Shown one piece after another: positions 38,551-39,246 of a stretch of 64,000 bases of DNA (the first letter of the stretch is position 1; each line of letters opens with the position of its first letter). Origin of the DNA: Candidatus Zixiibacteriota bacterium (lineage in GTDB: Bacteria > Zixibacteria > MSB-5A5 > WJJR01 > JAJRUJ01); assembly GCA_020051695.1 (NCBI GenBank), contig JAGVQM010000019.1, positions 79,937 to 143,936 of the forward strand, in the 5' to 3' direction. Position numbers and translations under genes: made by a program. The notes below the pieces were generated by a model, which saw nothing but the letters and a program-made list of their open reading frames with translations, made no database searches and was not told where the DNA came from.

Positions 38551-39246
38551 CTACAATGTCCCCAACAACCAAAATCCCGCCCCGAGCAACACCAGCCCGG
38601 CAACAATCCGGATTGGCTTGATGGCCTTTTGGAATGCCGAGGTCAACCGCCCCAACCCCATACCCAACATCAGGGCCGCCAACGGCAAACTGTAACCGAG
38701 AGCAAACATTCCCAGAATCAGTGTTCCCCAGCCCATCTGACCACGGGCCGCCGCCACGCCGAGGACGACGGGCAATAAAGGCCCGCAACAAATCAGCGTG
38801 CATGAGATACTGGCGGCGCCAACGACCAGCCCGAAAAGAGCGGCTCCTCCGAACCCGCTCGGACGTCGCCGATCAGTCAAGGTGAGTGAGGGCAGGCGAA
38901 AGGGCAGGAAATCCAGGGTTACCAGACCAAAGAAGACCGCGGCAATTCCGGCAAGTAACTGCCCGTAGCGGCCGAAATTCGCCCCGACAAATTGGCCGAA
39001 AAAACTGACGAGCAGGCCCAAGGATGTCAGGGCGATGGTTGTGCCTGCCAGGAAAAATAACGACGTGAACCAGGCATCCCGCCTGTCACGGACCCCGCCC
39101 TGTCCTCCGGAAAAACCGGCAACCGCCGCGATCAAACCCAGGTTGCAGGCCGAATTGACTGCCGTCATCAGCCCCAGAAGAAATGCTGCAGGCAAAGCTG
39201 CGATACCGAATTCCGGGGAAGCAAATATTCGCTCAATCCATTCCAC
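38551..39246 (-). CDS. MerT/DsbD-superfamily-like membrane protein with internally duplicated thiol motifs (SACNLGL...; SCTLICCGPLLP)
   Basis: 231 aa with six or seven TM helices. TM1 AVNSACNLGLIAAVAGFSGG resembles the MerT TM1 (ASACCLGPLVLIALGFSG) with the second Cys replaced by Asn. A later helix, ISCTLICCGPLLPVVLG, repeats the CC-GP-L motif. Located in the same operon as hgcAB. Confidence 0.5.
   Translation of the reverse strand: MEWIERIFASPEFGIAALPAAFLLGLMTAVNSACNLGLIAAVAGFSGGQGGVRDRRDAWFTSLFFLAGTTIALTSLGLLVSFFGQFVGANFGRYGQLLAGIAAVFFGLVTLDFLPFRLPSLTLTDRRRPSGFGGAALFGLVVGAASISCTLICCGPLLPVVLGVAAARGQMGWGTLILGMFALGYSLPLAALMLGMGLGRLTSAFQKAIKPIRIVAGLVLLGAGFWLLGTL

Follow-up and report, generated by a model that had tools for sequence, protein, structure and literature searches.

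Two kinds of described system stand closest to the gene considered here. In the mer system, Hg(II) is relayed by ligand exchange from MerP to a cysteine pair in helix 1 of MerT, then to a cytoplasmic cysteine pair of MerT and on to NmerA; MerC and MerF belong to the same kind of relay. The other kind comprises the electron transporters of the CcdA/DsbD-beta/ScsB type (PF02683, TC 5.A.1). The DsbD/LysE superfamily is known for an internal repeat of 3+3 helices and consists, DsbD aside, of carriers, heavy-metal carriers included; the carriers of the LysE superfamily are mostly exporters (PMC4608589). CcdA homologues have been found with thioredoxin-type genes in ars operons, where their function was left open (Castillo and Saier, 2010; PMC2963123), and proteins with CcdA and TrxA domains are named ‘mercury transporter’ in actinomycete records (PMC12195606). 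For the mercury-methylating system HgcAB, an arsR gene upstream of hgcAB and ars genes nearby are already known, and the papers on methylators that we consulted describe ArsR-type regulation and an active uptake that is coupled to export, Hg(II) entering and methylmercury leaving, and name no transporter (PMC7438021, PMC11984097). Here we describe a CcdA-like gene which, together with a gene for a cysteine-cluster partner protein, precedes hgcAB in a 64,000 nt stretch of DNA from Candidatus Zixiibacteriota bacterium (assembly GCA_020051695.1, contig JAGVQM010000019.1, positions 79,937 to 143,936), called the window below. The novelty lies in the conserved link to hgcAB and in the anatomy of the pair formed by the CcdA-like protein and its partner. 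The literature that we searched contained no link of hgcA with CcdA, DsbD or ‘cytochrome c biogenesis’; searches on the fold of ArsG gave nothing useful, and matches for merA with CcdA mostly concerned the CcdAB toxin system.

The open reading frames (ORFs) of the window and their translations were listed, and coordinates are given as window positions (Table 1). The CcdA-like gene is part of a five-gene operon on the minus strand in the order arsR, partner, CcdA-like, hgcA, hgcB, with a ribosome-binding site in front of each gene. The arsR stop codon overlaps the partner ATG as ATGA, and the further gaps are 9, 12 and 11 nt long. Since the GTG start of the CcdA-like gene has an AGGA ribosome-binding site 5 nt upstream and the N-terminus MEWI is common to homologues, the gene model is sound. 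A first-pass annotation of this DNA, made from the sequence, had called the same ORF and quoted two peptides from it; these are residues 29–48 (AVNSACNLGLIAAVAGFSGG) and 147–163 (ISCTLICCGPLLPVVLG) of the product. It had also proposed a linkage to hgc genes, which is confirmed by the equivalog matches of hgcA and hgcB: both are on the same strand and directly adjacent, 11 nt apart, and hgcA follows the CcdA-like gene after 12 nt. No cytochrome c maturation genes (ccs/res/ccm, including ResB/CcsB and CcsA) and no gene for a CXXC thioredoxin-like protein are found near the CcdA-like gene in the window. Paired cysteines are abundant in all five operon products, including a Cys-Cys-Cys at the N-terminus of HgcA and a Cys-Cys at the C-terminus of HgcB.

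Table 1. Positions of the hgcAB-linked operon and of sequence features discussed in the text.
Feature	Position	Strand	Description
arsR	39840..40229	minus	129 aa, ArsR/SmtB-family metalloregulator, first gene of the operon; HTH_5 40.5 bits, NF033788 66.1 bits (cut-off 55)
Partner gene	39256..39843	minus	195-aa bitopic cysteine-cluster protein; without Pfam or NCBIfam match
CcdA-like gene	38551..39246	minus	231 aa, GTG start; DsbD/CcdA-family membrane protein with six predicted helices, CC-type (PF02683 match)
Helix-1 motif N-S-A-C34-N-L-G-L	39133..39156	minus	first Cys of the pair lost here (family alignment); C34 codon TGC at 39145..39147
Helix-4 motif I-S-C149-T-L-I-C153-C154-G-P156-L-L	38773..38808	minus	from family alignment
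hgcA	37384..38538	minus	384 aa, corrinoid mercury-methylation protein with NVWCAAGK cap helix; NF040863 444 bits (cut-off 275)
Cys15-Cys16-Cys17 of HgcA	38488..38496	minus	in N-terminal extension; sequence TGTTGTTGT
hgcB	37076..37372	minus	98 aa, dicluster ferredoxin with Cys-Cys end, from ATG at 37372; NF040864 120.6 bits (cut-off 99)
Palindrome ACATATTTCGAAATATGT	40226..40243		18 bp, perfect; overlaps arsR start codon; candidate ArsR operator

The CcdA-like protein matches the DsbD_TM profile (PF02683) almost from end to end, with residues 17–229 on profile positions 4–216 of 219 and a score of 41.9 bits (gathering score 27.1). We found 160 relatives, all about 230 residues long, most of which carry precomputed PF02683 and/or PF13386 assignments; a look-up of contigs that encode the identical protein gave none. 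The best relatives from species-representative genomes are encoded by metagenome-assembled genomes (MAGs) of Zixibacteria and Ignavibacteria, at 58% identity. The best neighbours in NCBIfam are the DsbD-like part of the rhodanese/DsbD fusion TsoB (NF045694, 20.9 bits, cut-off 805) and DsbD, both far under their cut-offs. The model of the aromatic aminoarsenical efflux permease ArsG (NF040495, cut-off 200 bits) is not matched by the window protein at E ≤ 0.1, and gives a weak full-length match of 32.8 bits with a relative from a Pirellulales MAG. ArsG and TsoB illustrate the use of this fold in metalloid and selenium systems; the CcdA-like proteins are members of neither family. A search of solved structures with a profile of the family alignment returned no chain, CcdA and DsbD included, at E ≤ 1. 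On these comparisons, the gene belongs to a divergent, undescribed subfamily of the DsbD/CcdA family with extra cysteines predicted to be embedded in the membrane.

The AlphaFold2 (AF2) model of the protein is of low confidence (predicted local distance difference test score, pLDDT, 63.5). It has six long helices, of which helices 1 and 4 are broken at the cysteine motifs; Foldseek matches of this poor model to the PDB were meaningless (best E 0.26). Inspection of the sequence shows loops 1, 3 and 5 to be rich in Arg/Lys, which is consistent with an N-out topology. Alignment of the profiles of the N- and C-terminal halves of the family by hhalign gave a probability of 47% (E 1.9e-4, 78 columns), which is weak support for a repeat, and set the helix-1 cysteine motif on that of helix 4. 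The internal duplication proposed in the first-pass annotation is retained in this form: it is probably the 3+3-helix repeat that the DsbD/LysE superfamily has from its ancestor, and not a duplicated MerT.

Assignment to the MerT family had been the central claim of that annotation. The protein is indeed about twice as long as MerT (231 versus 116 residues), and the helix-1 consensus of its family, A-S-A-C-C-T-L-P...G-Y-S-G, resembles A-S-A-C-C-L-G-P...G-F-S-G of MerT. Nevertheless, it is highly improbable that the gene is a duplicated or fused MerT homologue. The MerT profile PF02411 gave no match at E ≤ 10, compared with 214.7 bits for the Tn501 MerT control; hhalign of the family profile with MerT covered 27 columns of helix 1 only, with a probability of 4.9%; BLASTP gave an E-value of 0.067; and DsbD_TM accounts for the whole protein. 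We rejected this origin. The resemblance seems to be a local likeness of the helix-1 motif, not a detectable homology. MerT has about 116 residues and three helices, compared with six predicted in the CcdA-like protein, and its loop cysteine pair has no counterpart there.

Conservation of the cysteine motifs was counted over 191 non-identical family members. The window protein contains four cysteines, at positions 34, 149, 153 and 154. In helix 1, position 34 is Cys in 97% of the relatives and position 33 in 93%, so that a vicinal Cys-Cys is the rule; the window protein has Ala at position 33 and belongs to the 7% minority without C33, in agreement with the earlier description of its first motif as degenerate, a pattern that exceeds chance. 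A sister subclade lacks C34 instead (S-C-V-N-W-G), and one helix-1 cysteine is always kept. Position 37 is Pro in 69% and Gly in 22% of the relatives, and Gly in the window protein. In helix 4, Cys is found in 75% of the relatives at position 149, in 33% at position 153 and in 96% at position 154, and Pro156 is invariant (100%); all four residues are present in the window protein. The family consensus is S-C-C-(N/T)-x-(P/G) for helix 1 and C-x3-(C)-C-x-P for helix 4.

One conserved cysteine in helix 1 (C34) and one in helix 4 (C154), about 120 residues apart, are found where the redox pair of CcdA is expected. The corresponding cysteines of Escherichia coli DsbD, C163 and C285, are 122 residues apart. 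The full-length profile match, the six predicted helices with their probable 3+3 repeat, the predicted breaks of helices 1 and 4 at the cysteine motifs and the thioredoxin-fold protein encoded by the adjoining gene are further likenesses to CcdA, DsbD-beta and ScsB. However, the family has CC in helix 1 and C-x3-C-C in helix 4 instead of single cysteines, and C33 (93%), C149 (75%) and C153 (33%) are extras beyond the canonical two. The [ST]-P-C-x-x-P motif is conserved at most in part: the residue before the helix-1 cysteine is Ala or Cys, not Pro, the helix-1 Pro at position 37 is often Gly, as in the window, and the invariant proline of helix 4 occurs as C-x-P or C-C-G-P. The first-pass annotation had named a confident CcdA assignment, SPC..P motifs and linkage to ccm/res genes as the combination that would speak against its MerT reading; we find a confident Pfam assignment, together with a different motif and a linkage to hgc, ars and metal genes.

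The partner protein begins with a cysteine cluster (C13-x-C15...C21-C22) and a basic patch, which are followed by one transmembrane (TM) helix (about residues 34–56), a linker with C-x5-C, a thioredoxin-fold domain (about residues 78–185) and a C-terminal C-C-P. The C-terminal domain was modelled by AF2 with pLDDT values of 78–90, and Foldseek identified a thioredoxin fold with probability 1.0, thioredoxins and redox-inactive thioredoxin-like domains being at the top of the PDB matches. The canonical site of this domain lacks a CXXC. A partner profile search of solved structures gave chance matches only. While a search with the single sequence found three relatives, a profile built from seven sequences found at least 329, all unnamed, and an exhaustive search of 1.84 billion cluster representatives found 565 at E ≤ 1e-3.

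Long partner variants of 340–375 residues carry an ArsD-like domain in front of the cysteine cluster and the TM helix (P0226, P0192, P0199, P0205, P0215, P0219, P0230, P0233 and P0235; PF06953, 17–27 bits, which does not exceed the gathering score of 27), with the motif C-G-E-Q-S-S-C-C-G-P and without a signal peptide. As these fusions have no signal peptide, the N-terminal cysteine cluster is probably cytoplasmic, with the thioredoxin-like domain and the tail outside. The charge distribution points to the same topology, with the N-terminal cluster cytoplasmic and the cysteine-rich tail periplasmic. ArsD itself, an As(III) metallochaperone, has a thioredoxin-like fold and vicinal cysteine sites without CXXC, as does the partner; the window partner differs from it in having no ArsD domain. 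Because an ArsD-like metallochaperone domain is fused beside the cluster, the N-terminal cluster may be tied to metalloid handling.

Twelve of the loci that yielded no partner in the profile search were inspected. Upstream sequence was readable at nine of them, and all nine have an ORF of 82–140 residues directly upstream of the CcdA-like gene. This short form has the N-terminal cysteine cluster, the basic patch, one TM helix and a cysteine-rich tail ending in C-C-P or C-C-G-x, and is devoid of the thioredoxin domain. As the short forms keep the clusters without that domain, the conserved core of the partner consists of cysteine clusters on the two predicted faces of a single helix. In a Myxococcota MAG (L084, 5212..5982), the tail of the short partner contains four tandem repeats of about 15 residues, P-T-C-C-G-G-A-A-T-V-E-A-Q-P-Q, which look like a metallothionein-like expansion. 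In a Methanotrichaceae MAG (L053, 5289..5959), the partner gene is split into two ORFs. Their start coordinates are in different frames; a selenocysteine site was rejected for this reason, and the split is probably a frameshift or a pseudogene.

To describe the gene contexts of the pair, species-representative genomes were surveyed. The survey returned 80 loci, and neighbours were counted within 4 kb over 82 non-redundant loci. The loci belong to Zixibacteria, Ignavibacteria, Bacteroidales, Calditrichota, Planctomycetota, Verrucomicrobiota, Lentisphaerota, Syntrophobacteria, Myxococcota, Eisenbacteria, Synergistaceae and, among the archaea, Methanothrix. A long partner is present at 68 of the 82 loci and an ArsR gene at 59 (72%). 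Less frequent neighbours are thioredoxin-type ArsC (25 loci), HgcA (24 loci, 29%), a heavy-metal P1B ATPase (20 loci) and a PF03773 permease (17 loci). Relatives at 53–56% identity have the same gene order as the window, arsR, partner, CcdA-like, hgcA, hgcB. In Planctomycetota, relatives at 43–44% identity lie in clusters of arsR, P-type ATPase, partner and CcdA-like genes with additional genes for ArsC, a PF03773 permease or MerB-thioredoxin proteins; the ATPase is of the heavy-metal P1B type (TIGR01525, 597 bits) and the phosphatase is thioredoxin-type ArsC. No ccm/res genes were found among the Pfam-annotated related loci.

In a neighbour-joining tree the CcdA-like family forms two clades. 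Members of clade I are mostly located directly upstream of hgcA, and those of clade II with ars and heavy-metal genes. Linkage to hgcAB recurs within clade II, with the pair downstream of hgcAB, upstream of it, or separated from it by a PF03773 permease gene. The occurrence of this linkage in both clades and in several gene orders points to a functional association rather than inherited synteny. From the side of hgcA, a CcdA-like gene lies within 3 kb at 8 of the 80 metagenomic hgcA loci most similar to that of the window. Among the 45 loci whose upstream sequence extends to 1.5 kb or more, 4 have it upstream, and 2 of the 29 with both flanks contain it.

Several related loci have arrangements of their own. 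In an Akkermansiaceae MAG (L073, 901..6699), hgcAB is flanked by two CcdA-like genes, one following a PF03773 permease gene directly upstream of hgcA, the other standing with a partner gene after arsR and arsC downstream of hgcB. At two metagenomic loci (L110, 3164..3943; L156, 2856..3539), the CcdA-like gene is downstream of hgcB and not upstream of hgcA; the profile of the long form detects no partner there, short forms not having been looked for. In the Pirellulales MAG that encodes the relative with the ArsG match (L003, CAYWZW010000003.1, 10633..16693), a dense metal(loid) cluster follows the module. It encodes a flavin mononucleotide reductase, an MtrA-like corrinoid protein, a CMD protein, a carrier of the SBF/Acr3 type, a Thioredoxin_3 protein, a DGC protein, a 503-aa thioredoxin-thioredoxin-MerB fusion and another thioredoxin-domain protein, which is cut off where the locus ends.

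The nearest analogue at the operon level is the actinobacterial mer transport operon, where the genes next to those for mercury enzymes specify an ArsR-type regulator, an extracytoplasmic protein with a thioredoxin fold and a member of the CcdA family. On a Rhodococcus plasmid, genes for an ArsR-type regulator, a small CC membrane protein, a thioredoxin-like lipoprotein with CGEC and a canonical CcdA are divergent from merA. The differences are considerable: the thioredoxin-like protein has a CXXC (CGEC), the CC membrane protein is a separate small protein, and the CcdA has the canonical single-Cys motifs NPCGFALLP and SLSCTFG, with an hhalign probability of 0.8% against the CcdA-like family. 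In Rhodococcus oxybenzonivorans pRB29 (L172, 2575..3482), the gene for the mer-linked canonical CcdA is broken by a frameshift or an error in sequencing, so that two ORFs of different frames overlap. The plasmid's gene table does not list it, and its product has an additional hydrophobic region and a D-C-C motif at its end.

A search of plasmids gave three weak relatives of the CcdA-like protein, of about 30% identity; the match in Acetoanaerobium was unannotated. Plasmid pMAB23 has no CcdA-like gene. Among cultured organisms, the nearest relative is a ‘CcdA’ of a Paraburkholderia fungorum plasmid (NZ_CP099649.1; hhalign 98.9%, E 1.4e-17), located in a cluster with HMA, P-type ATPase, MerR-type regulator and thioredoxin (CSHC) genes. 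Its gene context likewise includes a metal regulator, a P-type ATPase and a member of the thioredoxin family. The protein differs in having no helix-1 cysteine and C-P-F-C-T-P as its helix-4 motif, and its companion is a small soluble CXXC thioredoxin and not a bitopic cysteine-cluster protein. Unlike the window gene, neither this plasmid ‘CcdA’ nor the CcdA homologues of ars operons have a linkage to hgcAB.

We tentatively favour the view that the CcdA-like protein and its partner form a two-protein, cysteine-lined thiol-relay translocator for thiophilic metal(loid)s, which here serves HgcAB. What was observed is the family membership, the conservation of the cysteines, the structure of the operon and the conservation of the pairing and of its metal(loid) contexts; the topology, metal binding, substrate and direction are proposed on this basis. 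The partner would be a single-pass protein with cysteine clusters on both faces of the membrane, the N-terminal one cytoplasmic and the other in its periplasmic tail, and the CcdA-like protein would supply thiols embedded in the membrane, namely C34 of the broken helix 1 and C149, C153 and C154 of the broken helix 4. Hg(II), or elsewhere ions of the As(III) or Cd/Zn type, would move by ligand exchange from one cysteine cluster to the membrane thiols and on to the cluster of the opposite face. In the window operon, Hg(II) may be exchanged at the cytoplasmic end of the relay with the N-terminal Cys-Cys-Cys of HgcA or the C-terminal Cys-Cys of HgcB.

Such a relay would parallel that of MerP, MerT and NmerA on a different fold. 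Common to both are a membrane helix whose vicinal cysteine pair is set in much the same local motif, cysteine sites on the periplasmic and cytoplasmic sides (proposed, in the case of the hgcA-linked pair), an operon shared with a mercury-transforming enzyme and a metal-sensing regulator, and the logic of a ligand-exchange hand-off. In contrast to MerT, helix 1 of the window protein has a single cysteine (a pair in 93% of the relatives), and the outer and inner cysteine sites would be on the separate bitopic partner, not on a MerP fold or a MerT loop. The gene neighbours are arsR, partner, hgcA and hgcB instead of merR, merP and merA, and the enzyme is HgcAB, not MerA. Import of Hg(II) to HgcAB is favoured because of the mer precedent and the position before hgcA; the same anatomy would serve the export of Hg(II) or methylmercury. 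The supply of Hg(II) to HgcA, suggested in the first-pass annotation, is plausible and is strengthened by the conserved synteny and the cysteine-cluster partner.

Several points weigh against a relay that supplies HgcAB. The module is accessory to a minority (about 7–10%) of the sampled hgcA loci and not required for methylation; to our knowledge, the model methylators do not have it. C33, present in 93% of the relatives, has been lost from the window protein. Conservation of the canonical CcdA redox cysteines C34 and C154 and of Pro156 would be compatible with classical electron transfer. The efflux systems next to clade-II genes argue for export rather than import. The proposed topology of the partner relies on charge distribution and on the fusion argument, and the predicted geometry of the membrane cysteines on the poor AF2 model (pLDDT 63.5).

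A somewhat unlikely alternative is a reductant conduit like CcdA, DsbD and ScsB. Electrons of cytoplasmic thioredoxin would pass through a C34–C154 disulphide to the periplasmic part of the partner, the cysteines of which would be kept reduced to bind or buffer Hg(II) or As(III) outside, and the metal would cross by another route. This is in line with the full-length DsbD_TM membership, the conservation of C34 (97%), C154 (96%) and Pro156 (100%) at the positions of the CcdA redox pair and the predicted periplasmic thioredoxin-fold domain of the partner. Precedents are the CcdA-like and thioredoxin-like genes of ars operons (PMC2963123), the actinobacterial mer loci with ArsR-type regulator, CGEC lipoprotein and canonical CcdA, the plasmid heavy-metal cluster with thioredoxin (CSHC) and CcdA, and systems of the scs type. 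We nevertheless prefer a relay to a redox role, because the thioredoxin domain of the partner is without CXXC and dispensable, being absent in many hgcA-linked loci where the cysteine clusters of both faces are kept. A cytoplasmic cysteine cluster, which is conserved, or an ArsD-like domain, which occurs in fusions, would not be needed on an electron acceptor. The extra vicinal cysteines of helices 1 and 4 are foreign to the CcdA mechanism, and the tandem C-C repeats of the myxococcotal tail also speak for metal relay. In addition, the hosts are anaerobes, in which thiol oxidation in the periplasm is a lesser problem, and the sequence distance is large, in that no CcdA or DsbD of known structure was recovered at E ≤ 1 and hhalign against the mer-linked canonical CcdA gave 0.8%. 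An ordinary System II CcdA for cytochrome c biogenesis, placed beside hgcAB by chance, has next to no probability. Public annotations do read ‘cytochrome c-type biogenesis protein’ or CcdA family protein, and PF02683 is matched. However, genes for ResB/CcsB, CcsA or a CXXC thioredoxin-like protein are near it neither in the window nor at the Pfam-annotated related loci, the linkage to arsR, hgcA and metal genes recurs over many phyla and gene orders, and the motif of the window protein, which has no helix-1 Pro, is not SPC..P. This role was rejected on the gene context: the loci examined have hgcAB, ars and heavy-metal genes, and none of them has genes for cytochrome c maturation.

The relay may also run outwards, which we regard as unlikely. 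What the pair expels would then be Hg(II) or methylmercury in the window operon and As(III), organoarsenicals or Cd/Zn at other loci, with the cytoplasmic cysteine cluster or the ArsD-like domain as the loading site; only the direction differs from the relay favoured above. Export is suggested by the efflux systems and ArsC adjoining clade-II relatives, by the weak full-length ArsG match of one of them, by the exporter-rich superfamily (PMC4608589) and by the coupling of Hg(II) uptake to methylmercury export (PMC7438021). ArsD-like domains fused to the long partner variants are a further argument. ArsD-type chaperones load efflux pumps, as ArsD does with ArsA. On the other hand, no energy-coupling motif was identified in the pair, the mer precedent is one of importing thiol relays in operons with a detoxifying enzyme, and the position of clade I directly upstream of hgcA fits substrate supply equally well.

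Further features of the operon concern its regulator, its start sites and its surroundings. The ArsR protein contains a cysteine-rich stretch, SCCAAEKTC...SAC. Inverted repeats of the type TTCGA-N6-TCGAA lie over the arsR start in three related loci (L002, L009 and L023), and these and the window palindrome look like an ArsR operator. A -10-like box and the palindrome near the arsR ATG suggest a leaderless transcript or one with a very short leader. Scans for promoters and terminators in the window stayed at background level, and an Rfam scan of the window found no RNA family. The GTG start of hgcA, with an AGGAG ribosome-binding site 5′ of it, is 20 codons upstream of the JGI (Joint Genome Institute) gene call (384 versus 364 residues). 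N-terminal CC/CU extensions of HgcA have been described by Haft and Gwadz (10.1101/2022.07.06.499078), and the Cys-Cys-Cys extension appears to be a version of these without selenocysteine. For hgcB, the NF040864 alignment starts at residue 48 of a longer ORF, and an AGGAG site precedes the ATG listed in Table 1. The operon is flanked by genes for a phosphoglucomutase, a response regulator, an outer-membrane barrel protein, a squalene/phytoene synthase, SecD/SecF and a sigma-54 activator. Of these, the squalene/phytoene synthase-family gene (35898..36920; PF00494 121.8 bits, weak HpnD/HpnC-like matches) is on the hgcB strand about 155 nt downstream and has no evident link to the hgcAB operon.

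The pair bears on the entry of Hg(II) into methylating cells, the exit of methylmercury and the native role of HgcAB. The MerT label given to the gene was wrong, and the functional intuition of mercury transport behind it is viable. The pair provides a concrete candidate for mercury transport, as its cysteine-lined membrane proteins are co-operonic with hgcAB in many phyla and shared with arsenic and heavy-metal clusters. Several hundred proteins annotated ‘cytochrome c biogenesis protein CcdA’ are probably unrelated to cytochromes, and the partner family, with its 565 cluster representatives, has neither a Pfam family nor a name. It is conceivable, though rather doubtful, that the pair is a previously unrecognised two-component thiol-relay transporter on the DsbD fold, for Hg(II) or, outwards, for methylmercury, and the first dedicated mercury transport system found encoded with hgcAB. 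If so, the MerT/MerP logic would have arisen twice, independently and on different folds, and the sharing of the pair with ars and P1B-ATPase clusters would place HgcAB inside a modular toolkit for the detoxification of soft metal(loid)s.

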